Source: an uncultured Alphaproteobacteria bacterium
GTDB lineage: Bacteria > Pseudomonadota > Alphaproteobacteria > CAWJRW01
DNA length: 64,000 nt
Assembly: GCA_963845385.1 (NCBI GenBank)
Contig: CAWJRW010000006.1
Span: 1,224,910 to 1,288,909 of the forward strand
Direction: 5' to 3'
This document shows, piece by piece, positions 37,897 through 57,962 of the stretch. Under the pieces are notes generated by a model. The model had not been told where the DNA came from, ran no database searches, and saw only the letters and a list, made by a program, of their open reading frames with translations. The first letter of the stretch is position 1; each line of letters begins with the position of its first letter. The translations under genes and the position numbers were made by a program.

Positions 37897-37914
37897 ACTC
37901 AGTATGCGGAGCGC

Positions 37915-39464
37915 TCACCGCTTCAACTCCCACGTCGTGCCTTCGGGCGTGTCTTTCAACAAGATGCCTTTCTCTTCGAGCTCTTTGCGAATGCGATCGG
38001 CTTCCTTGAAGTTCTTCGCCTTGCGCGCCGCGTTGCGCGCCTGGACTAACTCGTCTGCCATTCGACGAACGACATTTCCGGATTGCCTCTGAGCTCGCGT
38101 GCAGCACGTCTCCATCGTAGATGCGTGCAATCCAAAGCTCAATTTCGCCGAGATAATCATTGGCATCCTGTCACGATCCTAGCTTGTCACGTGATACTGC
38201 CGTGCCATCCAAATCGCGTTATCGCCTGCGAAGCCTGACGATCAAATTAGGACTGCCGAGAAGTATCCGGCTTGTCTAGTGGCGAAGGCCCAAGAACCGC
38301 GCGCACTGAGCAAGCTGAAACGCTGTGTCACGATCAGATTGCGCAGCGCTAGCAATCTCGTAGGCGATGCTATCGCCTTGGGGTGTTGAGATCGTCGAAT
38401 ACCGCGACAAAGAACTCCGGATGTAGGCCTGATTGATCTCGCGATTTAGCTCTTGCCCAATTCGCGTGTCCGTCATGACTTCTGCCCATGACATCAACTC
38501 GTTGCGTGCATGTCAAGACTCGTCATAGTCCAATCGATCGGTTGTCGATAATGCGTCTTGAGCATCGCGAACCGAATTGTCGTCCAGACCATGGAATTCC
38601 TTGCCATCCCCGAACAGCTCACGCATCGTCACGAAATTCCCGAGGCACTTGGACATCTTCTGTCCTTCGACTTCCAAGAAGCCGTTGTGCATCCAGAATT
38701 TCGCGAGCGGCGCGCCGTTATGCGCGCTTTCGGATTGCGCGACTTCGTTCTCGTGATGGGGAAAGACGAGATCGATGCCGCCGCCATGGATGTCGAAGGT
38801 CTCGCCGAGCAGCGCCTCGCCCATGGCCGAGCATTCGATGTGCCAGCCGGGCCGCCCGCGGCCCCAGGGTGAATCCCAACCGGGCTTGCTCGGGCAGAAG
38901 ACGGCTTCCACAACACGAAGTCCATCGGGTGCTTCTTGTAGGGCGCGACCTCGACGCGCGCGCCCGCGATCATCTCGTCGGTCGAGCGGTGGGCGAGCTT
39001 GCCGTAATCGGGCTTGGTCGTGACGTCGTAGAGCACGTGGCCGTCCGCCACATAAGCGTGGCCGGTCGCGATGAGCTTTTCGATCATCGCGATCATCTGC
39101 GGAATATGCTCGGTCGCGCGCGGCTCGAAGGTCGGTTCAAGGCAGCCGAGCGCCGCCACATCCTCGTGGAATGCTTTGGTCGTGCGCTGCGGTGATCTCG
39201 TCGATCGAGCACGCCCTCTTCCTTCGCCGCGGCGATGATCTTGTCGTCGACATCGGTGATGTTGCGGACGTAAGTGACGTGCTCCTCGCCATAGATGTGG
39301 CGCAGCAAGCGGAACAGCACGTCGAAGACGATGACGGGCCGCGCATTGCCGATATGGGCGTAGTCGTAGACCGTGGGCCCGCAGACATACATGCGCACGT
39401 TCGCAGCGGCATCGAGAGGCGTGAACACCTCCTTCTTCCGCGTCAGCGTGTTGTAGAGCTTCAA
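37915..39464 (-). CDS. cysS: Cysteine--tRNA ligase (many frame breaks; 3' third of unusually low GC)
   Basis: [16 protein letters not shown]...[21 protein letters not shown]; ...[15 protein letters not shown]...[15 protein letters not shown]...KMSKCLGNF; [17 protein letters not shown]; [11 protein letters not shown]; the tail ...[44 protein letters not shown]. Confidence 0.88.
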
Positions 39465-39652
39465 GTTCCATCGTTCAGTCCACGAATCGACACGTTAAAG
39501 GCTCGGCTTCCCGCCGCCCTTCGTCAATTTCATCTCTTAATGGAAATGCGCGAGCGGGCGGCGAGAGGGTCTAGCCACCAATAATCAGAATGCAGCATGT
39601 GCGTGCCGCTCTGACCTGTTCCAGGATCGTCCGATCCAAATCCATTTGGCCC

Positions 39653-40996
39653 TCAAGCCCGCTTGCCCAGAAGCCGCGCCCGTGCGCGCTCGGGGCCGAT
39701 GAGCAGTAGCAGCTTTTTCATTTCCGGTCCATCCGCGCGGCCGGTGAGCGCAAGCCGCAGGGGATGAAAAAGCGCCCGGCCCTTGGCGCCGGTCGCCGCG
39801 CTCAAGGCCTTGGTCCAGGCGCTCCAGGTTTCTTCGCGTATAGGGCGCCATCGGGCAGAAGCCCCGCCGCCGTTTCGGTGAGCGCCTTGTCCTCGATCAC
39901 GGGCTCGATCGGGCCGTTCACCACCTGCCACCAGACTTGCGCGTCGGCGAGCTTGCCGAGATTGCCGCGCACGGCTTCCCAGAACTGCACATCGGCGGGG
40001 ATGTGAAGCGCGGCCAAGCGCGGCGCGGCATCCGCGAAGGCCATGCGATGCAAGGCCCGCGCGTTGAGCGTCTTCAGCTCCGCCTCGTCGAAGCGCGCGG
40101 GCGCGCGGCCGATCTTGGCGAAGTCGAATTCCTTCGCGAGCGCTTCGAGCGAGGCCGCGGGCTCCACCGCATCGGAGGTGCCGATCTTGGCGAGGAGACT
40201 CAACAGCGCCAGCGGCTCGTAGCCTTGCGCGCGCAAATCCGCGATCGAGAGACTGCCCAAGCGCTTCGACAGCGGCCCGCCGTCGGCCGCGAGCAGCAGC
40301 GGATGATGCGCGAAGGCGGGCGGCTCGGCGCCGAGCGCCTTGAAGAGCGCGATCTGCGGCGCGGTGTTGGTGACGTGATCCTCGCCGCGGATGACATGGG
40401 TGATGGAAAGCTCGATATCGTCGACGACCGAGGGCAGCGTGTAGAGAAACTGTCCGTCGGAGCGCAGGAGCACGGGATCGGAGACCGAGGCGAGATCGAT
40501 CTCGACCCGCCCGCGGATGAGATCGTCCCACGCCACCGCGCCTTCGCCCAAGAGGAAGCGCCAATGGGGCTTCAGTCCTTCCGCTTCGAGCTTCGCGCGT
40601 TCGTCGCTCCGAGAGCTTCAGCGCCGCGCGGTCATAGACCGGCGCCAGCCCCGCGCGCCATCTGCGCGCTTGCGCTTGCGCTCGAGCTCGCTCTGGCGTC
40701 TCGTAGCAGGGATAAAGCCGCCCTGCCGCTTTCAGCTTCTCCGCCGCGGCCGCGTAGCGCACGACGCGCGCCGACTGGCGCGCGACGTCGTCGTAAGTCG
40801 AGCCCGAGCCAAGCCAAGTCTTCCATGATCGCGGCGACGAATTGCTCCTGCGAGCGCTCCGATCCGTGTCGTCGATGCGCAAGAGAAAGCGCCCGCCCTC
40901 CTTGCGCGCGAAGAGCCAGTTGAAGAGCGCCGTGCGCACATTGCCGACATGCAGGAGCCCCGTCGGGCTCGGCGCGAAGCGGACGGTGACGGTCAT
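39653..40996 (-). CDS. gltX: Glutamate--tRNA ligase (many frame breaks)
   Basis: [46 protein letters not shown]. The core [26 protein letters not shown]...PLSKRLGS is in ORF 39802..40551. The tail ...[26 protein letters not shown]. Confidence 0.9.
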
Positions 40997-47285: not shown

Positions 47286-48694
47286 CTATTTGCCGAGCGC
47301 GGCGAGGAGATCGGCGGCGAACTCCGACAGCGTGTCGTCGCGCGCGCCCATGATGACGATGCGGTCGCCGGGCTTGGCGAGCGCGAGGAGCTTGTCGCCG
47401 CAGGCCGCGCGCTCGGCGAAGGCATAAGCCTCGCGCCCGCGCGCCTGCACGCCCCGCACGATGTCGTCGCTCGTCACGCTGCGGTCGACCGTGCCGCCGA
47501 AATAGACCGGCTCCGGCATGATGAGCACGTCGTCCCCGCGCATGTTCGTGGCGAAGCAGTCGATGAAGGCGTCCTTCATGAGCTTGAGCGGCCCGAAGCC
47601 GTGCGGCTGGAACATGAGCAGAAGCCGGCCCGGAAAATCGTGCAGCGTGGCCAGCGTCGCCGCGATCTTGTCCGGGTTGTGCGCGAAATCGTCGATGACC
47701 GTGACGCCGTTCGCCGTGCCGACAAGCTCCAAGCGCCGCCTGATGCCGGCGAAGCTTTCGAGCGCGGCGGCGGCTTTCTCCAAGCGACACGCCGCAGGCG
47801 CGCGCGGCGCCGAGCGCGGCCAAGCGCGTTCGCGACATTGTGACGGCCGGGCACTTTCAGCCGCACTTGCGCGTTCTCACCCGTACCGCGCTCGCGCACC
47901 TCGAAACGAAATGCCGTCCGGCGCAGGCGCGAGCTTCTCGCCCAGAAGATGGGCGCCCGGATTCGTCAGGCTGTAGGTGATGGCCTTGCCCGGCGGCTCC
48001 ATCGCGGCGAGCGCGGCGGTCTCGTCATTGTCGAGATTGAGCACCGCCGTCTTGGCCTTGCCGACGAAATCGCGGAACAGCGCGCGCAGCTCGTCCAGCG
48101 ACTTGTGGTCGAGCGCGACATTGTTGAGCACGGCGATGCGCGGCGTGTAGAGGGCGATCGAGCCGTCGCTCTCGTCGACCTCGCTGACGAAGACGTCGCT
48201 CTTGCCCACCACGGCGCTGGCGAAGGGCGTCTTCGTCCGTGACGAAATTCTTCATCACCGCGCCGTTCATGATCGTGGGGTCGCGCCCCGCTGCGTGCAA
48301 GATCCAGCCGATCATGCCGGTGGTGGTCGACTTGCCGCTGGTGCCGCCGACGGCGATGCTTTCGGGCGCGGCGTTGAACAGCTCGGCGAGCAGCTCGGCG
48401 CGCGTCGTCATGGTGGCGCCGACGCGGCGCGCGGCCTGCACGTCCGGCACCGTCTCCTCCACCGCGGCCGAGGTGACCAGGATCTGGTCGGCGCGCGTGA
48501 CGCCGCTGCCGTCTTGGCGGAAAAGCGCGATGCCCTGCGCGCGCAGGAACTCGAACTTCTGCGCCGGTGCGGCCCTGGTCGAGCGCGCGGTCCGAGCCCG
48601 CGACGGCGAAGCCCTTGGCCCGCAGGATCAGCGCGAGCGGCAGCATGCCGCTGCCGCCGATGCCGCAGAAGAAATAAGATCGCGCGTGATTCAT
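47286..48694 (-). CDS. Mur ligase family protein (MurC/Mpl-like; many frame breaks)
   Basis: [35 protein letters not shown]; [20 protein letters not shown]; [10 protein letters not shown]; NVALDHK; the C-terminal domain ...[16 protein letters not shown]...IMGARDDT is in ORF 47286..47783. Adjacent to ldcA. Confidence 0.8.
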
Positions 48695-48931: not shown

Positions 48932-49765
48932 ATGAAGATCGGTGTCGTGGCCCCCGGCGCGCGCATCGAGCCAGCGGTGGCCGAGAGCGTGCAGGCGCTC
49001 GCGGCCAGGCTTTATCCCGACGACACGCCCGAGATCGTCTTCCATCCGCAATGCTTTCTCGCCGAGGGCCATTTCGCCGGCGACGATCAGGCGCGCGCGC
49101 TCGCCTTTCTCGAGGTGGCGAACGACGCGAGCGTCGATGCCTTGTGGTTCGCGCGCGGCGGCTACGGCTCCTGCCGCGTGGCGTTGGAACTGATCCCGCT
49201 GTTGAGCGCCGCGGCGCGCAAGAAGACCTATCTCGGCTACAGCGACGCGGGCTTTCTCTTCGCGGGCCTCTACAAACGAGGCTTCGCGGGGCTCGCCCAC
49301 GGGCCGATGCCCGCCGACATGCCGCGCGCGGGCGGCGAGGCGGCGGTCACGCGCGCGCTCGCTTTTCTCGTCGATCGCGCGCCCGAGACGCTCGAGCCCA
49401 CGCTTTCGCCCGAGACGCCGGCCGCGGCCTTCAACATCACGATCTTGAGCCACCTCCTCGGCACGCCGCTCGAGCCCGATCTCACGGGCCACGTGCTCAT
49501 GCTGGAAGAAGTGGCCGAGCACATGTACCGCATCGACCGCGCGCTCTTTCACATCACGAGCAATCCGGGCATCCGGCGCGTCGAGGGCATCCGGCTCGGG
49601 CGCTGCAGCGCCATCCCGCCCAACGAGCCCGATTTCGGCGAGAGCGAGGAGGAGGTGGCGAAGCACTGGTGCCGCGCCTCCCGCATCCCCTATCTCGGCC
49701 GCGCCGACATCGGCCACGACGGGGACAACAAGGTGGTGCCGTTTGGAAGGTGGAGTGGCGCTTGA
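48932..49765 (+). CDS. ldcA: LD-carboxypeptidase (peptidase S66)
   Basis: Intact 277-aa ORF. ...FAGDDQARALAFLE...DALWFARGGYGS...YLGYSDAGFLF...MLEEVAEHMYRIDRAL...GHDGDNKVVPFG. Confidence 0.85.
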   Translation: MKIGVVAPGARIEPAVAESVQALAARLYPDDTPEIVFHPQCFLAEGHFAGDDQARALAFLEVANDASVDALWFARGGYGSCRVALELIPLLSAAARKKTYLGYSDAGFLFAGLYKRGFAGLAHGPMPADMPRAGGEAAVTRALAFLVDRAPETLEPTLSPETPAAAFNITILSHLLGTPLEPDLTGHVLMLEEVAEHMYRIDRALFHITSNPGIRRVEGIRLGRCSAIPPNEPDFGESEEEVAKHWCRASRIPYLGRADIGHDGDNKVVPFGRWSGA

Positions 49766-49822
49766 CCGAGCCACTGAATGTAAGATATTCTTACGTCTTA
49801 CCTTCCCGCAGGGAGCCCGGCC

Positions 49823-50038
49823 TTGTCCATCTATTCCAAAGTCACGTCCAAGGCGCAGACCGTGATCCCGAAGGAAATCCGCAAACGCCTCGGGCTCAAG
49901 CCCGGCGACATGATCCGCTACAAGGTGACGGGCAAGGCGGTCGAGATCGAGCGCGCGGGCGCGCCCGCCGACGATCCCTTCGCGAGCTTCACCGAATGGG
50001 CGAGCGATGCCGACGAAAAGGCGTACGGCAAGCTCTGA
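49823..50038 (+). CDS. AbrB/MazE/SpoVT-type antitoxin
   Basis: Intact 71-aa ORF with a TTG start. SKVTSKAQTVIPKEIRKRLGLKPGDMIRYKV is a swapped-hairpin motif. Its stop overlaps the downstream toxin frame. Confidence 0.8.
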   Translation: MSIYSKVTSKAQTVIPKEIRKRLGLKPGDMIRYKVTGKAVEIERAGAPADDPFASFTEWASDADEKAYGKL

Positions 50039-50386
50039 CAGTCGCCCGCTACGCGCCCTGGGACGTCGTCATCGTCCCGTTTCCCTATGCCGACAAGCTC
50101 GCCGAGAAGCGCCGCCCCGCCCTCGTCGTCTCCAAGCCCGCGCTCGAAAAGGACCACGGCCTCATCTGGCTCGCCATGATCACGAGCGCGGAGAACCGAG
50201 GCTGGACGGGCGATGTGCCCATCGCCGATCTTGCGCGCGCAGGACTGCCCGCGCCCTCGCTCGTCCGGCCTGCCAAGATCGCCACCGTCGAGAGCGACGC
50301 GCATCCTCATGCGCGTGGGCACGCTTTCCGCCGCCGAGCGGCGCGGCGTGGCTCAAGCGATGGGGCGCTATGCAGTCGCCGATTGA
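50035..50386 (+). CDS. PemK/MazF-family toxin (start codon unclear; one frame break ~50300)
   Basis: ...YAPWDVVIVPFPYADKLAEKRRPALVVSKP...IWLAMITSAENRGWTGDVPI...GLPAPSLVRPAKIATVESD, then ILMRVGTLSAAERRGVAQAMGRYAVAD* one frame over. Confidence 0.75.
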
Positions 50387-50505
50387 TTGCCGTTCAAGTG
50401 CCATTTCGATGAAGGAGCCTGCCTCAAAACGCGCGAAAAAATTCAACTAGCCTTGAACCCCATTTGCATTCGAACCTCTTTCAAGGGGTTTCTCTTGACC
50501 CCTGG

Positions 50506-50844
50506 TCATCCCTGGTAATTAAAATGTCTTCCTTCACCAAAGTCATAAAGCTGAATGCTCCGGCCATTGATAGAGCCTTGGAAGTGGCAGCCGGAGTTGT
50601 AATCGTAGCCCGAAAATGAGTTCCCATTAATTGCGAGGCTAATGTGTTGTCCCAACCCATGATGATAAAGGGTTGCGCCGTTACCAGAAACATGGGCTCC
50701 CGCCTGATGATCATAAAAATTGTCAGCGCTACCGCTCATGTTGATATGTCGGCCTTCCGAATAGCTGTAGATCGAGTTCGGTGAATGACCTGTGGCACGA
50801 GCCAATACAGCGAACGCAATTGCACGACGGGTCTCTTCGTTCAT
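50506..50844 (-). CDS. Hypothetical 112-aa protein with five degenerate ~18-aa 'Y-x4-G-x-H-(I/V/F)' repeats; low-GC
   Basis: ORF 50506..50856. The ATG at 50844 is preceded by GGAGGTGA. The repeats are SYSEGRHINMSG / FYDHQAGAHVSGNG / LYHHGLGQHISLAING / GYDYNSGCHFQGSING / LYDFGEGRHFNYQG. The gene lies 21 nt downstream of the LexA-like gene. Confidence 0.6.
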   Translation of the reverse strand: MNEETRRAIAFAVLARATGHSPNSIYSYSEGRHINMSGSADNFYDHQAGAHVSGNGATLYHHGLGQHISLAINGNSFSGYDYNSGCHFQGSINGRSIQLYDFGEGRHFNYQG

Positions 50845-50865
50845 GAAAACACTCACCTCCAGTGA

Positions 50866-51495
50866 TCATTCAAATGGCTTCGAGACTGTGGCAATGACTA
50901 CGCCCTGCACCATGAAATCGCGCTCTAAAATGATTGGTTGATGTCTTGTGTCGTTCGAATGCGGTGTGAGGACAACTTTATCGCCTCGGCGCCCGAACTT
51001 CTTGATGGTCGCGGCATCGTCAATAAGCGCAACGACGACCTCACCGTCTTGTGCGACCGGTTGTTGACGAACAAGCACGAGATCGCCGTCTTCAATACCC
51101 CCTAGATTCATCGAGTTCCCAACCGCACGAAGAAGGAAATAGCTCGCCCCGGGTCGTGCGAGCCGCTGAGAGACGGGAACCATGGCCTCGATGTTTTCCT
51201 CGGCGAGCATTGGCAACCCACAAGGCACTGCTCCCACGAGCGGAATTTCGATCGTCCGCTCCATATGCATCTCGTCGACAATGTCGCGGATAAGTCTAAG
51301 TTTCCCCGTCGGCGTGCGCGCGAGATAGCCCTTCTTGATGAGGCGCTCGATTAGCAGCGATGCCGATCGGCGGGATTTGAAGCCCACATGATCACAGATC
51401 GCTTGAAGAGTGGGCGCCCGCCCGCGGTACAGAATGCTGTCGCGGATGAGGCCTAAGCCCCTAATTTCATTTGGTTTATTCCCTATTGTAGCCAT
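50866..51495 (-). CDS. LexA-family (winged-helix + S24 peptidase) repressor paralogue; low-GC
   Basis: Intact 209-aa ORF. LexA-type wHTH (APTLQAICDHVGFKSRRSASLLIERLIKKGYL), linker IPLVGAVPCGLPMLAEENIE, Ser motif AVGNSMNLGGIEDGDLVLV and Lys in ATIKKF. Confidence 0.85.
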   Translation of the reverse strand: MATIGNKPNEIRGLGLIRDSILYRGRAPTLQAICDHVGFKSRRSASLLIERLIKKGYLARTPTGKLRLIRDIVDEMHMERTIEIPLVGAVPCGLPMLAEENIEAMVPVSQRLARPGASYFLLRAVGNSMNLGGIEDGDLVLVRQQPVAQDGEVVVALIDDAATIKKFGRRGDKVVLTPHSNDTRHQPIILERDFMVQGVVIATVSKPFE

Positions 51496-51497
51496 GG

Positions 51498-51510
51498 TAT
51501 CCAGAGGATA
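51498..51510. promoter_or_regulatory. Perfect 13-bp palindrome abutting the LexA-like start codon (candidate operator)
   Basis: TATCC-AGA-GGATA, 3 nt upstream of the ATG (51495). It sits in the 75-nt divergent spacer toward the small plus-strand ORF. Confidence 0.3.
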
Positions 51511-51569
51511 TACTTTGTCTACTAGCGGTGCAAGTCCGCGTCAGGACCAGCGGTCAGTGGAGACGATTC

Positions 51570-51716
51570 ATGGCTCGAAAGCAGAAGCCACCCGATTGGA
51601 ACAAGGCGCAGCCACACCATGTGGTGACTGGCAAGATCACCACCAGAAAGTTCGCCGATGCTCACCCAGAGAAAGTTGAGTGGGTGAGAGGGAAAAAGCC
51701 CAAGGAAAAGGGATAG
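51570..51716 (+). CDS. Small basic hypothetical protein (48 aa), divergent from the LexA-like gene
   Basis: MARKQKPPDWNKAQPHHVVTGKITTRKFADAHPEKVEWVRGKKPKEKG. GGAGA lies 7 nt upstream of the ATG. It is part of ORF 51528..51716. Confidence 0.35.
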   Translation: MARKQKPPDWNKAQPHHVVTGKITTRKFADAHPEKVEWVRGKKPKEKG

Positions 51717-51937
51717 CGGCGACTTTCGCAGCGCTGCCAAGGGTTAAGGCGCACGATTTGCCTGTATTCCTCACGGCCTGCGACGGGCCGTCCGAGTAGC
51801 GGCCGCTCGGAAAGCAGCCTCGCCTTTTCCATGATTTCGGCCGCAGCGATGGCCGCAAGGTTGGGATGATGCTCGTGGAGAAACAGGGCGAAACGGTCGA
51901 GGTCGGCCAGCGCCTCGGCCGACCATTCGAGCTTCAT
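51662..51937 (-). pseudogene. ParE/RelE-family toxin, divergent copy with aberrant 3' end
   Basis: MKLEWSAEALADLDRFALFLHEHHPNLAAIAAAEIMEKARLLSERPLLGRPVAGREEYRQIV..., but the expected ...Y..Y....I.ILRV.H tail is missing in all frames. ATGA overlap with the upstream antitoxin. Confidence 0.6.
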
Positions 51938-52209
51938 TGGTCGCGCCATGCGCGGAAAGCGGGCGTGCCCCAGCTTTCGAGACAGCGCACGACCTTTTCG
52001 TGGGGGACGGTCTTGCCGCCCGTCTCGACGGATTTCCAACGCCGATCAAGCTCGGCGACCGTTTCCGCCTCGGAAAATCCCGGCGCAGTCTCGGGCGCCA
52101 CAAGCTCAGCGAGGAGCTCGGAAACCGTGATCCCCCGCGCCGCCGCGCGCGCTTCGAGCGCGTCGGCGGTCGCGGCATCGATCTCGATCTTGCGCAGCTT
52201 GATGGTCAT
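51934..52209 (-). CDS. Ribbon-helix-helix antitoxin (ParD-like), divergent copy
   Basis: Intact 91-aa ORF. MTIKLRKIEIDAATADALEARAAARGITVSELLAEL... The N-terminal 35 aa are nearly identical to copies 2 and 3, while the C-terminal half is different. Confidence 0.75.
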   Translation of the reverse strand: MTIKLRKIEIDAATADALEARAAARGITVSELLAELVAPETAPGFSEAETVAELDRRWKSVETGGKTVPHEKVVRCLESWGTPAFRAWRDQ

Positions 52210-52267
52210 AGAAAAAGCCTACGCCCGAGCCGGTAAATTGTCGAGAAAGCGCCCCGGCGCACGCCCC

Positions 52268-52404
52268 TCACCCAATCCCCACCGCTTTCATGCGCTCCAC
52301 CACATGCTCGACAGTGCGGCGCACTTTGGGCGCGATGAGGCGGTTCGAGGGATAGACGGCGTAGATGCCGCTTGTGGGTGTGGGGAAATCTTTGAGCACG
52401 CGCG
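52268..52404 (-). pseudogene. Fossil 3' end of a LysR-family regulator gene
   Basis: The minus frame reads ...ALTRVLKDFPTPTSGIYAVYPSNRLIAPKVRRTVEHVVERMKAVGIG*. There is no upstream part, and it abuts the parE stop. Confidence 0.65.
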
Positions 52405-52689
52405 TCAGCGCGCTTCGCGGCCGTGCCAGACGCGGAGAATGACGATCGTGTCTCTCTGCGTCAGGTGCGCATAGCGCAACACGTAAGCCGACGCGCCGAA
52501 TGGCACGACGAGCTCGCGCACGCCGGGAATGCCGGATGGGCGGCCGCGAGCGGGAAAGATTTCCAGGGATTGTATGGCAGCGTCGAGAACATCGGCGATC
52601 TGTTGCGAAGCCGATGCGCTCTTGTCTTCAAGAAACGTGTGCAGCCGCTCGAGGTCCGCAGCGGCGGCCTGAGAGACGATCAGCCTCAC
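52405..52689 (-). CDS. parE: ParE/RelE-family toxin (tandem copy 2)
   Basis: A GTG start overlapping the antitoxin TGA gives (M)RLIVSQAAAADLERLHTFLEDK...FPARGRPSGIPGVRELVVPFGASAYVLRYAHLTQRDTIVILRVWHGREAR. Confidence 0.85.
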   Translation of the reverse strand: MRLIVSQAAAADLERLHTFLEDKSASASQQIADVLDAAIQSLEIFPARGRPSGIPGVRELVVPFGASAYVLRYAHLTQRDTIVILRVWHGREAR

Positions 52690-53006
52690 AGCTTGCGCGG
52701 CTTCGGCGGCGGAAGCTCGTTCGGCGTGCCCCAGCTTTGCATCCAGGCCTTGACCTCGTCCCAGGGCACGCCGAGCCCGTTGCGCTCGAACTCGGCAAGC
52801 CGTCGCGCATCCTCGGCGAGGATTTCGGGCGCCCACGGGCCGCGGCCCGCGGCACGCATGGTTTCGAGGTCGGGCGGCAGGGATTCTTCGGTTTGGGCAA
52901 TCTCGGCAAGAAGCTCGGCGACTGAAATTCCACGCGCCGCGGCGCGTGCTTCGAGCGCATCGGCCGTCGCCGCGTCGATCTCGATCTTGCGCAGCTTGAT
53001 GGTCAT
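52686..53006 (-). CDS. parD: Ribbon-helix-helix antitoxin (ParD-like; tandem copy 2)
   Basis: Intact 106-aa ORF, identical in protein sequence to 53523..53843. Confidence 0.8.
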   Translation of the reverse strand: MTIKLRKIEIDAATADALEARAAARGISVAELLAEIAQTEESLPPDLETMRAAGRGPWAPEILAEDARRLAEFERNGLGVPWDEVKAWMQSWGTPNELPPPKPRKL

Positions 53007-53104
53007 GCAAACAGCCTACGCCAGCGCGAGTTAATTGTCGAGAAAATGCCCGGGCTTGCGCAATGCCCTCGCCTCGGTCCGGCAAAGCTTTCGCGCCCCT
53101 CCCC

Positions 53105-53241
53105 TCACCCAATGCCCACCGCCTTCATGCGCTCCACCACGTGCTCGACAGTGCGGCGCACTTTGGGCGCGATGAGGCGGTTCGAGGGACAGACGGCGAA
53201 GGCGCCCCTTGTGGGTGTGGGGAAATCTTCGCGCATGCGCC
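53105..53241 (-). pseudogene. Fossil 3' end of a LysR-family regulator gene (second copy)
   Basis: ...ALRRMREDFPTPTRGAFAVCPSNRLIAPKVRRTVEHVVERMKAVGIG*. Diverged from the copy at 52268-52404. Confidence 0.6.
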
Positions 53242-53526
53242 TCAGCGCGCTTCGCGGCCGTGCCAGACGCGGAGAATGACGATCGTGTCTCTCTGCGTCA
53301 GGTGCGCATAGCGCAACACGTAAGCCGACGTGCCGAATGGCACGACGAGCTCGCGCACGCCGGGAATGCCGGATGGGCGGCCGGGATCGGGAAAGATTTC
53401 CAGGGATTGTATGGCAGCGTCGAGAACATCGGCGATCTGTTGCGAAGCCGATGCGCTCTTGTCTTCAAGAAACGTGTGCAGCCGCTCGAGGTCCGCAGCG
53501 GCGGCCTGAGAGACGATCAGCCTCAC
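53242..53526 (-). CDS. parE: ParE/RelE-family toxin (tandem copy 3)
   Basis: Same as copy 2 except for AR->DP and A->T substitutions. It lies exactly 837 bp from copy 2. Confidence 0.85.
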   Translation of the reverse strand: MRLIVSQAAAADLERLHTFLEDKSASASQQIADVLDAAIQSLEIFPDPGRPSGIPGVRELVVPFGTSAYVLRYAHLTQRDTIVILRVWHGREAR

Positions 53527-53843
53527 AGCTTGCGCGGCTTCGGCGGCGGAAGCTCGTTCGGCGTGCCCCAGCTTTGCATCCAGGCCTTGACCTCGTCCCA
53601 GGGCACGCCGAGCCCGTTGCGCTCGAACTCGGCAAGCCGTCGCGCATCCTCGGCGAGGATTTCGGGCGCCCACGGGCCGCGGCCCGCGGCACGCATGGTT
53701 TCGAGGTCGGGCGGCAGGGATTCTTCGGTTTGGGCAATCTCGGCAAGAAGCTCGGCGACTGAAATTCCACGCGCCGCGGCGCGTGCTTCGAGCGCATCGG
53801 CCGTCGCCGCGTCGATCTCGATCTTGCGCAGCTTGATGGTCAT
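53523..53843 (-). CDS. parD: Ribbon-helix-helix antitoxin (ParD-like; tandem copy 3)
   Basis: Intact 106-aa ORF. Its start lies 26 nt downstream of the rpoD stop. Confidence 0.8.
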   Translation of the reverse strand: MTIKLRKIEIDAATADALEARAAARGISVAELLAEIAQTEESLPPDLETMRAAGRGPWAPEILAEDARRLAEFERNGLGVPWDEVKAWMQSWGTPNELPPPKPRKL

Positions 53844-53868
53844 GCAAAAAGCCTACGCCAGCGCGTCC

Positions 53869-55992
53869 TCAATTGTCCAGGAAGCTTCGCAGCTTCCGCG
53901 ACCGGCTCGGGTGCTTGAGCTTGCGCAGCGCCTTCGCCTCGATCTGGCGGATGCGTTCGCGCGTCACCGAGAACTGCTGACCCACTTCTTCGAGCGTGTG
54001 GTCGGTGTTCATGCCGATGCCGAAGCGCATGCGCAGCACGCGCTCTTCGCGCGGCGTGAGCGAGGCGAGCACGCGCGTGGTCGTCTCGCGCAAGTTCGAC
54101 TGGATCGCGGCGTCGATGGGCAGGATCGCGTTCTTGTCCTCGATGAAGTCGCCGAGATGGCTGTCCTCCTCGTCGCCGATGGGCGTTTCGAGCGAGATCG
54201 GCTCCTTCGCGATCTTCAAGACTTTGCGCACTTTCTCGAGCGGCATGGCGAGCTTTTCGGCGAGCTCCTCGGGCGTGGGCTCGCGGCCGATCTCGTGCAG
54301 CATCTGGCGCGACGTGCGCACGAGCTTGTTGATAGTCTCGATCATGTGCACGGGAATGCGGATGGTGCGCGCCTGATCGGCGATCGAGCGCGTGATGGCC
54401 TGCCGGATCCACCACGTGGCGTAGGTCGAGAACTTGTAGCCGCGGCGGTACTCGAACTTGTCCACCGCCTTCATGAGGCCGATATTGCCTTCCTGGATGA
54501 GATCCAAGAACTGCAGCCCCCGGTTCGTGTATTTCTTGGCGATGGAAATGACGAGGCGCAGATTGGCCTCCACCATTTCTTTCTTGGCCTGGCGGGCTTC
54601 CTTCTCGCCCTTCTGCACCGTCTGCACGATGCGGCGGTACTCGGCGATCTCGAGCCCGGTCTCGCGCGACAGCTTGTGAATCTCGTTGCGGATTTCCTTG
54701 ACGGCGGCGCGCTCGACCTGCACGTACTCCTTCCAGCCCTTGCCCGCGAGGCGGCCAACGCGGCGCGTCCAATTCGGGTCGAGCTCGTTGCCGAGATACT
54801 GCTTCAGAAAATCGTCGCGGCTCACGCGGTGACTTTCGGCGAGCCGCAGAAGCTTGCCTTCGAGCGAGACGAGCCTGCGGTTGATGCCGTAGATCTGATC
54901 GACCAGCGCCTCGATGCGGTTGTTGTTGAGGCGCAGGCTCTTCATGAGATCGACGAGGCCGCCGCCGAGCTTGTTCAGGCGCCGGCCCTGGCTCGTGGAA
55001 ATGTCTTCGTTCTTGAGCTTCGCGCCGACATTGGCTTCCTGCAGCCGGCGCAGCTTTTTGTACTCGCCCGCGACCTTGTCGAAGATCTCGAGCACTTGCG
55101 GCTTCAGCGCGATTTCCATGGCCGCGAGCGACATCGCGTTCTCGTCGTCGTCGCCGAAATCCTCTTCGCCCTCGGGCAGCTCAGGCTCGTCGCTGCCGTC
55201 CTTCTGGCCTGCCACGGCGGCGGGCGCGGGCGCGGGCGCGGGATCGGGCGCCGCACCCATGATTGCGGGAGCGGCTGCCGCCGGCACCACCACCACCGCC
55301 GCCGCCGCCGCCGGCACCGGCACCGGCACCGGCGCCGCACCGGGCTGGGGCACGCCGTCCGGGCCCTGGCCATAGGTGGCGTCGAGATCGATGACGTCAC
55401 GGAGCAGAATGCGCCCCTCGTTCAGCTCGTCGCGCCAGATGGTGATGGCGCGGAAGGTGAGCGGGCTCTCGCACAAGCCGCCGATCATGGTCTCGCGGCC
55501 GGCCTCGATGCGCTTGGCGATGGCGATCTCGCCCTCGCGGGAGAGGAGCTCCACCGAGCCCATCTCGCGCAGATACATGCGCACCGGGTCGTCCGTGCGG
55601 TCGAGCACCTCGGCCTCGGGCTTTGCCGTGAGCGCACCGTCCTCGCGCACGGCCGGCGGCTCGGGCTCGGCCTCGGCCTCTTCCTGCTCCTCGGTCTCGA
55701 CCACGTTGATGCCCATCTCCGAGAGCATGGACATGGTGTCCTCGATCTGCTCGGAGGACACCTGCTCGGAGGGCATCACCTTGTTCAGCTCGTCATAAGT
55801 GACATAGCCGCGCGTCTTGGCCTTGGCGATCATCTTGCGCACGGCCTGATCGTTGAGATCGAGGAGCGGCTGGTCTTGCGTCTCGGCGCCGGGCTCCGCC
55901 GCGCCACCTGGGGTGGGGGTCGCGGGCTTGGCGCCGGCACGCGGCTCGGGCGCGCGGCGCTTCGTCTTCGTCTGTTCCTGCTCACGCGCCAT
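53869..55992 (-). CDS. rpoD: RNA polymerase primary sigma factor (sigma-70)
   Basis: Intact 707-aa ORF. Regions 1.1-4.2 are recognisable ([57 protein letters not shown]...[42 protein letters not shown]). Confidence 0.97.
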
Positions 55993-56055: not shown

Positions 56056-57962
56056 CTACCCTATGGGGCGAGAGCTCTCGGTTGTCAGAGCCTGCCACTC
56101 CAGGACGAGCGCCCGGAGCCGCAACAACGTGGATTCGTCCTCGCCTTGGCTCAAATCGGCAGTCGCCTGGTCCAAATCCGCGCGCAGACGGCGCCCGCGC
56201 GCCAGCCGCTCGGCGGCGCGCCGCCATTGCCGTTCCGCCTCGTCAACCGAAAGACCCACCCAATTCGCGCTCATTCTGCGCACGACATCTCGCGCGAAAA
56301 GACTCTTCCGCGGCATCGATCAGGCCGCGATTCCTCAAGTGGTCCTTGAGCAAGAGCGTGTCAAGGCTTCCCCCGCGCGAGGTCAGGTCTATGAGTTCAT
56401 TGGACAATCGGTCAAGCTCGGGGGCCGAGAAAGAGACCTCCGTCAGGGCCTCGCCGACCCGCTCCAAAAGCTCGGGCAGCGCGATGAGGGTCGCCATGAG
56501 GGCGCCCTCCACCTCCTCCAGAAAGGCCGGCGGCAGGGCCGCGTTGTTGAGCCCCGCCCGCACCAGGGGCGAGCGGCGCAGGCCCGGGCTTGCGGCCGGC
56601 GGAGATGGCCGGCGTCCTGTTCCCCCTTTCGTGAAGGCGGAAGAAAAGAGCGCGCTCAGGCGCTCGGCAAAGGCGCGGCCGTAATTGAGCCGAACCCCGG
56701 GCTCGGCGATCCGGCGCACAAGCGCCCGCAAGCGCTCCTCGAACTCGGCCCGGCGCTCGGGCGTGTCGAGTGGCTGGGCCGCAACCTCGCGTTCCCAGAG
56801 AAAATCGACCAGCGCGTCGGGCGAGCCGAGGCATGCCTCCATGGCCGCGCGCCCGCGCTTTCGTATGAGATCGTCGGGGTCGAGCCCCTCGGGCAGCAGC
56901 GCGAAGCGCAAGGAGCGCCCGGGCTTCACGTGAGGGAGCGCGAGATCGGCCGCGCGCAAGGCCGCGCGCTTGCCCGCCTCGTCGCCGTCGAAGCACAGAA
57001 TGGGCTCGGGCGCGGCCTGCCAGAGAAGTGCGAGCTGATCTTCGGTGAGCGCGGTGCCGAGCGGCGCCACGGCGTTGGTGAAGCCCGCGCCATGGAGCGC
57101 AATCACGTCCATGTAGCCTTCGGCGACGATGAGCGTCCCCGCCTGCGCGGCCGAAGCCACTTCGGCGCGGCGAAGGCCCGTCTCGCGCGCGGCCTTGCGC
57201 GCGGCGGCGAAGTTGAAGAGGAGCTTGCCTTTGTGGAAGAGCGGCGTCTCGGGCGAGTTGAGATATTTCGGCACTTGAGGATCGCGCGACAGCGTGCGCC
57301 CGCCAAAGCCCGCGAGCCGTCCCCGCGCATCGCGAATGGGAAAGATCACGCGCTCGCGGAAACGGTCGTAAGCGCCGCGCTCGGCGTCGGCTATGACAAG
57401 CCCCGCCTCGACCATGAGCGGCTCCTTGTAGCCCGCGCGCTTCAGATGATCGAAGAGCGCGGTGCGGCTCGCCGGCGCGTAGCCGAGCTCGAAGCTTTGC
57501 CAGAGCTCGGGCCCGCAGCCGCGCCCGGCAAGATAAGCGCGCGCCTCGGCGCCCTCTTGGCCGCGCAACGCCGCGACGAAGAAGCTCTGCGCCGCCTCGA
57601 GCACTTCGGCGAGCGCCGCGCGCCGCTCGTCCACCGCCTCGGATCTCGGCGTCGCGCTTGGGCAGCGAGAGCCCCGCGGTTTCCGCGAGCCGCTCCACCG
57701 CCTCGACGAAAGAAAGATTGTCGATGGCCATGGTGAAGCCGATGGCATCCCCGCTCACGCCGCAGCCGAAGCAGTGATAGAAGCCCTTGGCGTCGTCGAC
57801 ATGGAAGGACGGCGTCTTCTCGCCATGGAACGGGCAGCAGGCCCAATAGTCGCGCTTGCGCGCATTGGACTTGCGCGGATCGAAGCTCACGCGCTGACCC
57901 ACGATCGCGGCCAGCGAGATGCGGGCGCGCAGCTCGTCGAGAAACTCGGGCGGAAAGTTCAT
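56056..57962 (-). CDS. dnaG: DNA primase (two frame breaks, ~57660 and ~56290)
   Basis: Zinc finger ...DYWACCPFHGEKTPSFHVDDAKGFYHCFGCGVSGD. The TOPRIM region ...IVAEGYMDVIALHGAGF...CFDGDEAGKRAA is in ORF 56243..57748. The tail is in ORF 56056..56316. Confidence 0.92.

Follow-up and report, generated by a model that had tools for sequence, protein, structure and literature searches.

The interval between the housekeeping genes ldcA and rpoD in a 64,000-nt stretch of an uncultured alphaproteobacterial genome (contig CAWJRW010000006.1 of assembly GCA_963845385.1; the whole stretch is called the window below, and coordinates count from its first nucleotide) is probably a mosaic of selfish and accessory DNA, in which three components accumulated at a synteny break just downstream of rpoD. 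The patch (49823–53868) lies between ldcA (48932–49765; Peptidase_S66 domains) and rpoD (53869–55992, minus strand, from the listing of open reading frames (ORFs) and from homologues), and the 3′-end of rpoD is the source of duplicated remnants inside the patch. The ORF listing and profile searches place in it a mazEF-type toxin–antitoxin (TA) pair, a low-GC block and three parDE units. An earlier note, made from the sequence alone, had described a mazE/mazF-like pair, low-GC LexA-type genes, a divergent ORF and three parD/parE units in this interval, and all of them are present where it put them, but as 11 ORFs and not as the 10 small genes that it counted. Its TA assignments are borne out by Pfam and PDB matches, and the TA modules are ordinary members of the ParDE and MazEF families. 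It is likewise likely that the patch is neither a coherent, active defence system nor a single integrated element.

Read along the minus strand, the order of genes and gene pieces is rpoD, parDE3, lysR′, rpoD′, parDE2, lysR′, rpoD′, parD1 and parE1′, where primes mark truncated genes and remnants. The parDE3 unit occupies 53242–53843 (parD3 53523–53843, parE3 53242–53526), and parD3 starts 25 nt past the rpoD stop codon. It is followed by lysR′ remnant 2 with 43 codons (53105–53236) and, upstream of parD2, by a decayed duplicate of the final ~92 nt of rpoD in which 27 nt are deleted (53030–53097). The parDE2 unit (52405–53006; parD2 52686–53006, parE2 52405–52689) is followed in turn by lysR′ remnant 1, comprising the last 43 codons (52268–52399; Pfam LysR_substrate and tblastn), and by a short rpoD-tail-like remnant upstream of parD1 (GCTTTCTCGACAATT, 52236–52251) recognized by alignment to the last rpoD codons. 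The array ends with parD1, a ribbon-helix-helix antitoxin gene of 91 amino acids (aa; 51934–52209), and the truncated toxin gene parE1′ (51752–51937), of which the first 62 codons are homologous to parE before the ORF runs into foreign sequence.

A repeat search identified units 2 and 3 as a direct repeat with a period of 837 bp. In an ungapped comparison of 52410–53009 with 53247–53846, which covers parE and parD, only 3 differences were found in 600 nt, and all of them are in parE. At the same offset, there are 12 differences in the ~140 nt of lysR′ after parE, and identity collapses beyond 53030. Accordingly, ParD3 and ParD2 are identical, ParE3 and ParE2 are 96.8% identical with three differing residues, and lysR′ remnant 2, which is part of the repeat, has 86% aa identity to remnant 1. 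The earlier note saw no direct repeat in the patch, a statement that is contradicted by this tandem duplication and by the decayed rpoD 3′-end copies that precede parD2 and parD1.

Both intact toxins match the ParE profile PF05016 nearly end to end (positions 2–88 of 89), with 57.5 bits for ParE2 (E 2.1e-15) and 56.4 bits for ParE3 (E 4.5e-15) against a cut-off of 23, whereas ParE1′ matches positions 1–58 of 89 only. The antitoxin gene lies directly upstream in the same operon, with 4-nt overlaps of GTGA (parD2–parE2) and ATGA (parD1–parE1). The RHH_1 match of ParD is below the gathering score, and parD1, an orphan beside the truncated toxin gene, gives weak RHH_1 and Unstab_antitox matches. 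Moreover, PDB entry 7ETR, a toxin of the RelE/StbE family with a CopG-family regulator, has partner chains that match ParE2 and ParD2. Toxins of the ParE family poison gyrase; ParD would neutralize ParE and repress its own operon. In these respects, namely an upstream ribbon-helix-helix antitoxin gene overlapping the toxin gene by 4 nt, toxins that match the ParE profile end to end and two proteins that match one solved complex, the modules resemble known ParDE type II systems (PF05016; 7ETR). They differ in forming a three-unit tandem array directly after rpoD with co-duplicated pieces of rpoD and lysR, in the truncation of one toxin gene, and in the construction of unit 1, which joins the shared DNA-binding N-terminus to a different toxin-binding part and a different toxin.

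The identity of the pieces between the units was determined by profile searches and alignments. The ~140-nt segments after parE2 and parE3 encode a LysR C-terminus that matches positions 166–208 of 209 of LysR_substrate (PF03466; E 4.7e-4, below the gathering score), and their tblastn matches coincide with annotated LysR genes on plasmids. Upstream of parD2, an alignment of ~65 nt to the final 92 nt of rpoD includes the 27-nt deletion; this copy ends with TTTTCTCGACAATTAA, where the real rpoD ends with TTCCTGGACAATTGA, and the local alignment score of 41 compares with 15.3 ± 2.4 (maximum 25) for shuffled sequences. The remnant upstream of parD1 is putatively homologous to the rpoD tail, judged by its position, and looks like the same joint after a further deletion. 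What unit 1 has in common with the other two is confined to the upstream region and the first ~107 nt of parD, at 82–84% identity; ParD1 and ParD2 are 53% identical overall, and the retained part of ParE1 is ~26–30% identical to ParE2 as estimated by eye. GC content at third codon positions (GC3) of the parDE genes is 0.74–0.79.

The array is best explained as tandem amplification of a unit that runs from ~90 nt inside the rpoD 3′-end, through parD–parE, to a lysR stub. According to this model, the first copy keeps rpoD intact, and later copies carry a decaying rpoD tail. Near-identity of units 2 and 3 across parDE suggests a recent event or gene conversion, and the abrupt change within unit 1 points to recombination with a different parDE allele and not to gradual divergence. 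The rpoD tail was probably co-duplicated because it holds the parD promoter. A candidate promoter, T[C/G]GACA-N17/18-TAGGCT, lies just before each parD ATG, and the last rpoD codons, CTGGACAAT, resemble a putative −35 element for parD3. In addition, a terminator scan found no terminator-like site between rpoD and parD3, and hence read-through from rpoD is an alternative to a promoter of the array's own.

Several observations weigh against this simple picture of amplification. The candidate parD promoter scores 8 of 12 and was unflagged by a consensus promoter scan. The remnant upstream of parD1 gives an alignment score of 20 against 13.8 ± 2.2 for shuffles, and is too short for significance alone. 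Moreover, identity to the real rpoD end is ~82% for the tail upstream of parD2, whereas the adjacent parDE copies are 99.5% identical. A single recent duplication is insufficient to produce both values, which calls for the assumption of gene conversion or of a history in two steps.

The second component, a low-GC block at about 50390–51748 (~1.36 kb), is the only clearly foreign part of the patch, and likely a stranded regulatory module of a mobile element. It contains a LexA-type gene, a 112-aa gene and a divergent 48-aa gene. Its GC content is 0.42–0.58 in 60-nt windows versus ~0.65 on both sides, and the 112-aa, LexA-like and 48-aa genes have GC3 values of 0.48, 0.60 and 0.65, respectively, versus 0.88 for ldcA and 0.90 for rpoD. 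On the left, the frame-corrected mazF stop codon (50384–50386) immediately precedes the block. On the right, its edge cuts parE1, where ParE homology ends at 51752 in tblastn searches. No direct repeat or target-site duplication flanks the block, and only an 8-nt inverted match was found. An independent short-read contig of 1870 bp (L001, public run ERR11592905) is 99.8% identical to the window without gaps over 50338–52207, and reproduces the junction of parE1′ with the block as well as the junction on the mazF 3′-side. Since both are present in this independent contig, the block and its junction with parE1′ are real. The contig ends at 52207 inside the shared 5′ segment of parD, as expected for a segment present in multiple copies.

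The foreign fragment would have replaced the 3′ part of parE1, and would carry the regulatory core of an integrative-element family, consisting of the repressor, the divergent 48-aa gene and one downstream cargo gene; DNA damage would then de-repress all three. We regard the fragment as stranded because the recombinase and the larger cargo operons of its relatives are absent here. The block ends within 35 nt past the 48-aa gene, and any operon that once followed is gone. The hallmarks of an integrative element that were looked for in the window, namely a recombinase, a tRNA target and flanking att repeats, were all not found: ARAGORN predicted no tRNA across the whole window, and tblastn with serine and tyrosine recombinases from related loci found none in it, in agreement with the earlier note, which had seen neither integrase nor tRNA. 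Its suggestion of a decayed integrative element can thus be kept for the 1.36-kb block, and fails for parDE, which is best explained by local tandem duplication, and for mazEF with its GC3 of 0.88.

The LexA-type gene (50866–51495, minus strand) encodes a predicted 209-aa self-cleaving repressor with LexA_DNA_bind (PF01726) and Peptidase_S24 (PF00717) domains, which scores 151.2 bits with the equivalog model TIGR00498 (cut-off 110.95). Its alignment to LexA chains in PDB is full-length. In the alignment with the best of these, 7b5g, which we take from its residue pattern to be Escherichia coli LexA, GNSM stands opposite GMSM, TIKK opposite TVKR and VPCG opposite VAAG. Without exception, 11 family members that were aligned keep the catalytic Ser (in GNSM) and Lys (in TIKK) and the Cys-Gly site. 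A Cys-Gly cleavage site is of the UmuD type, and the repressor should cleave itself there upon activation by RecA. Thus, domain order, catalytic Ser and Lys and full-length alignment are those of LexA, whereas the cleavage site is Cys-Gly and not Ala-Gly, and the gene is compositionally foreign with close relatives on mobile elements that are not host SOS master regulators.

Homologues of the LexA-like protein number 2349 at E ≤ 1e-10, of which one is 86% identical and the others ≤70%, and the closest of those with a name belong to Rhodanobacteraceae and Blastocatellia and not to Alphaproteobacteria. A foreign GC3 and closest relatives on mobile elements of other phyla are not what is expected of a host SOS master repressor. 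Moreover, reading of 51496–51569 revealed no GTTC or GAAC repeat upstream of the gene, and a different conserved repeat is found there. The repressor is LexA family by sequence, and not the host SOS regulator by context. A phage origin of the gene was also considered and rejected, with no IMG/VR match to either the protein or the family alignment. Phage and plasmid databases contained only canonical LexA at 35–41% identity.

The divergent control region of 74 nt (51496–51569) contains a TTGC box and the inverted repeat GTATAT-N5-GGATAC, which ends just before the ATG of the LexA-like gene. In an alignment of 8 homologous upstream regions, TTGC is invariant within the 60 nt preceding the repressor gene, and a GTATAC-N5-G(A/T)ATAC repeat, likewise shared, ends 1–2 nt before the ATG. 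A promoter scan found the promoter-like TAGACA-16-TACCAT in the same region, and the conserved repeat is a likely operator overlapping the promoter.

On the other side of this region, the 48-aa gene (51570–51716, plus strand) has its real start at ATG 51570 behind a GGAG ribosome-binding site, and is divergent from the LexA-like gene. Homologues hold the same divergent position in three related loci, with 66% identity over 47 aa in L139 (E 3e-16) and 70% over 33 aa in L141 and L142 (E 2e-13), and in the latter two the homologue is the first gene of the strand that carries a Bub operon. The protein had no match among Pfam, NCBIfam or PHROG families. It is possibly a DdrR-like co-repressor. In Acinetobacter, DdrR acts as a co-repressor in the umuDAb-ddrR system (PMC7273328), in which, as here, a small gene is divergent from the repressor gene across a short shared control region (PMC7273328). 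The likeness to DdrR is one of gene position, and the co-repressor role is our proposal.

We examined the neighbourhoods of nine LexA-like homologues, a small and non-systematic sample. Eight of the nine, with homologues 62–69% identical, are on elements with an integrase or serine recombinase, or have Bub, SMODS, DUF2188 (YegP-like) or KAP-NTPase genes as neighbours. Directly adjoining the regulator, eight of nine have Bub, SMODS, DUF2188 plus KAP NTPase, an MBL-fold gene or a ParB-methyltransferase. A Bub operon (Multi_ubiq, ThiF/DUF6791 and BubE) is divergent from the LexA-like gene in three loci, and SMODS genes are found in two. Three loci have a DUF2188 (YegP-like) gene directly after the LexA-like gene (L140 4645–4890, L143 4650–4892 and L144 3447–3689), after which comes SMODS in one locus and KAP NTPase in the other two, which are near-identical. 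In two loci of one homologue cluster, an MBL-fold gene is downstream. Large serine recombinases lie within a few kb in four of the nine loci, and a tyrosine integrase with AlpA in one.

Controllers of comparable operons have been described. CapW/BrxR, CapH with CapP, and CapK with CapS control Bub, CBASS and YegP-like genes upon DNA damage (PMC11601596, PMC13373217), and the same kind of DUF2188 gene stands behind capK–capS in 57 cases (PMC13373217). Since DUF2188 genes follow both LexA-like genes and capK–capS, regulator families seem interchangeable before the same cargo. LexA-like relatives resemble these Cap-type controllers in lying next to Bub, SMODS and YegP/DUF2188-like promoters on mobile elements, and DNA damage would be the expected input signal in both. 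They differ in protein family and in the expected mode of sensing, which would be RecA-stimulated self-cleavage and not binding of single-stranded DNA, a partner protease or a kinase. The copy in the window also differs in that the immune operon is missing and only the 112-aa gene follows the regulator. LexA-type regulators are without mention in these two papers (PMC11601596, PMC13373217), and no description was found in the literature searched, of which the coverage is incomplete.

The LexA-like repressor and the 48-aa gene may form a fourth class, so far undescribed, of regulators that sense DNA damage and control neighbouring immune or stress operons of integrative elements; such regulators would act by RecA-stimulated self-cleavage at Cys-Gly together with a DdrR-like co-repressor. 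The operons so far associated with LexA-like relatives are Bub, SMODS/CBASS-like, YegP/DUF2188 and KAP NTPase. The window would hold a stranded copy that controls only the 112-aa protein, itself possibly a damage-induced effector. We put this forward tentatively, as a possible interpretation that we would not yet call probable. Three observations weigh against our account of the block. The 48-aa gene is found in only three of the nine related loci, and one 57%-identical relative of the repressor sits among metabolic genes. In addition, pairing of the regulator with this cargo is specific to the present locus, because none of 55 other loci with a 112-aa family gene has a LexA-like neighbour.

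The 112-aa gene (50506–50844, minus strand) has its real start at ATG 50844 behind a GGAGG site, 21 nt downstream of the LexA-like gene. Its family comprises 579 representative clusters at E ≤ 1e-3 and 252 at E ≤ 1e-10, typically of 108–121 aa, and homologues align from residue 5 of the ORF. The protein contains five repeats of ~16 residues of the type YDxxxGxH. An AlphaFold2 model (pLDDT 97.7, pTM 0.90) consists of an N-terminal helix and 10 β-strands. Foldseek searches with this model returned nothing at E ≤ 1e-3 in PDB or BFVD; the weak best match was the helix-in-barrel BT domain of acyl-CoA carboxylases (TM-score 0.53, E 0.014), followed by LolA and FABP-like barrels. No match was found in Pfam, NCBIfam, PADLOC or PHROG, and a word-based homologue search was empty. 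The sole plasmid match is a hypothetical protein beside inositol catabolism genes.

Loci with homologues of the 112-aa gene were found with a seven-member alignment, as the family-wide alignment is without a conserved stretch of 7–10 residues. With a LexA-like neighbour in 0 of these 55 loci, the idea of an obligate partner of the LexA-like regulator was rejected, and the 112-aa gene here is simply a gene placed under the repressor. One clade (L091, L093–L095, L102–L113 and L117) has a fixed neighbourhood, in which a MarR-type gene and a gene for a ~110-aa Gly/Ala-rich membrane protein are directly upstream and a ~160-aa lipoprotein-like gene is downstream; this suggests a chromosomal, envelope-related role of the family in that clade. 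In another locus (L083, 1017–7368), a 52%-identical relative belongs to an element that also carries DUF2924 and a large serine recombinase, and is placed directly after two unannotated genes (377 and 232 aa) and before a DpnII/MboI-family gene.

The third component is the mazEF-type module next to ldcA. Its mazE-like gene (49823–50038, plus strand) encodes a 71-aa antitoxin of the AbrB/SpoVT type (Pfam MazE_antitoxin, E 1.7e-9; TIGR01439, E 2.4e-11). A promoter scan found a promoter-like site at 49762–49794 on the plus strand, the TTGACC of which (49762–49767) overlaps the ldcA stop codon. Upstream of mazE, the perfect palindrome GTAAGATATTCTTAC (GTAAGA-TAT-TCTTAC, 49780–49794), read directly from the sequence, is a likely MazE operator. 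The PemK/MazF-like toxin gene follows at about 49996/50035–50386 on the plus strand, and its start is uncertain, as ATG 49996 overlaps mazE and no canonical start codon adjoins the mazE stop. As assembled, the toxin covers positions 3–86 of 109 of the PemK profile, above the cut-off, and a +1 frame correction at 50300/50301, where the change of frame was mapped by tblastn, extends this coverage to 3–104. Both genes have a host-like GC3 of 0.88. MazE would repress its own operon at the promoter palindrome and neutralize a MazF-type RNase. The order of an AbrB-type antitoxin gene and a PemK-fold toxin gene, and the promoter palindrome, are as in MazEF/PemIK systems. The differences from these are the missing canonical start codon next to the mazE stop and the broken frame at 50300/50301, by which the last ~20 profile positions are lost and for which an assembly error is a possible cause.

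This last caveat arises from frameshifts elsewhere in the window. In dnaG (56243–57962), the frame switches near 57640, between the zinc ribbon and the DNAG_N/Toprim catalytic core. In cysS (37915–39471), four pieces match consecutive parts of the profile (8–70, 76–177 and 177–268, and the C-terminal domain), and the Mur ligase gene next to ldcA (47286–48694) is divided into three pieces by single-base frameshifts. Since these essential genes also carry single-base frameshifts, indel errors in the assembly are likely, and we have withdrawn the mazF frameshift as evidence of toxin decay; it possibly reflects an assembly error, which takes one sign of decay away from our reading of the patch. 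Truncation of parE1, the lysR′ and rpoD′ remnants and the duplication are independent of single bases. Two further observations belong to this part of the window. The ORF at 39653–40996 has a glutamyl-tRNA synthetase-like start followed by Arg-rich nonsense, and looks like a further frameshift. The 3′ half of cysS (37900–38800) has a GC content of 0.52–0.55 versus ~0.65 around it, a second compositional dip that the earlier note did not list.

Relatives were compared by an LdcA-based contig scan, which gave 80 loci with LdcA identities of ≤74%. The divergent mpl–ldcA pair is kept in 76–78 of them, and synteny is lost just after ldcA in all 80; except for mpl, neither rpoD nor any other gene from 36–64 kb of the window was found within 10 kb of ldcA. 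An exact look-up of the LdcA sequence gave no match, and the closest RpoD homologues are 77–78% identical. Homologues of ParDE2 with ~60% identity (L037 and L073, Micropepsaceae-like) are located between a 639-aa gene and an efflux-pump-like gene, not near rpoD. The patch thus lies at a synteny break. As a point against the proposed history, the nearest LdcA and RpoD homologues are only 74% and 77–78% identical, and the order of events and the empty-site state were not observed directly. The accessory character that the earlier note gave to the patch is supported by its lack of metabolic genes, its position at the synteny break, its gene remnants and its compositionally foreign block. As to rpoD itself, 55200–55400 is a Pro/Ala-rich low-complexity stretch with a GC content of 0.745, and the protein of 707 aa is ~100–150 aa shorter than its best homologues (850–860 aa, 77–78% identity).

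Other histories of the patch can be imagined. Integrative elements bring replacement gene tails at tRNA genes or guaA, and the parDE units could similarly be mobile cassettes that entered, one after another, an att site in the rpoD 3′-end, each with a replacement rpoD tail. Such serial site-specific insertion accounts for the occurrence of every unit between a copy of the rpoD tail and the same lysR′ stub, for the different cargo of unit 1 (parD C-terminus and parE) between similar boundaries, and for a remnant upstream of parD2 that is more diverged from rpoD than expected of a recent local duplication. However, the window is without integrase, recombinase or tRNA, the ~60%-identical ParDE homologues sit between unrelated genes and not beside rpoD, and a 0.8-kb cassette of such kind is without described precedent. 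Moreover, the two lysR′/rpoD-tail junctions look like one joint with a later deletion, which is the pattern of unequal crossing-over. We consider serial insertion unlikely, and prefer tandem amplification. TA cassette arrays of chromosomal integrons offer a related comparison: several TA modules in one orientation with repeated boundary sequences between them are common to both, whereas the array here has no integron integrase, its boundaries are remnants of neighbouring genes and not attC sites, and it consists of only three units.

TA systems can act in phage defence, and the TA modules and the LexA-like operon might jointly form a functional defence or abortive-infection island kept by selection, as the earlier note suggested in speaking of a defence island. 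Intactness of parDE2 and parDE3 and the Bub, SMODS and KAP-NTPase operons that LexA-like homologues flank on mobile elements are in accordance with this idea. It is nevertheless improbable: no model of PADLOC-DB matched any of 8 patch proteins at E ≤ 0.01, one toxin gene is truncated and one frameshifted, the defence operons of the homologues are absent from a block that ends so shortly past the 48-aa gene, and the lysR and rpoD remnants point to rearrangement and not to a selected architecture. More improbable still is that the patch is an ancient core locus fixed in the lineage, or a mis-assembly of a single parDE copy. The host-like GC3 of mazEF, the only mildly lower values of parDE and the indel errors of the assembly in essential genes would agree with one or the other, but the low-GC block is clearly foreign and synteny is lost just after ldcA in every relative. 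As to mis-assembly, the repeat copies differ at 15 positions (3 in parDE and 12 in lysR′) and their flanks differ, so that they are not a collapsed or doubled repeat, and the independent contig ends in the shared parD 5′ segment, just where a multi-copy repeat would break an assembly. Hence, we retain the reading of the patch as a mosaic that accumulated beside rpoD.

For this genome the patch means little, as what lies beside rpoD is a small graveyard of addiction modules plus one fragment of a mobile element. The parDE array, on the other hand, is an unusually clear case of how TA modules can multiply on a chromosome: with each duplication the 3′-end of the essential gene upstream is copied too, probably as the carrier of the antitoxin promoter, and datable scars remain in the form of rpoD tails and lysR stubs. 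The stranded LexA-type regulator is a lead to a family of repressors of the self-cleaving type, whose genes adjoin Bub, SMODS and YegP-like genes within integrative elements. If this association is confirmed by a census, it would link SOS/RecA signalling directly to the control of mobile defence cargo.

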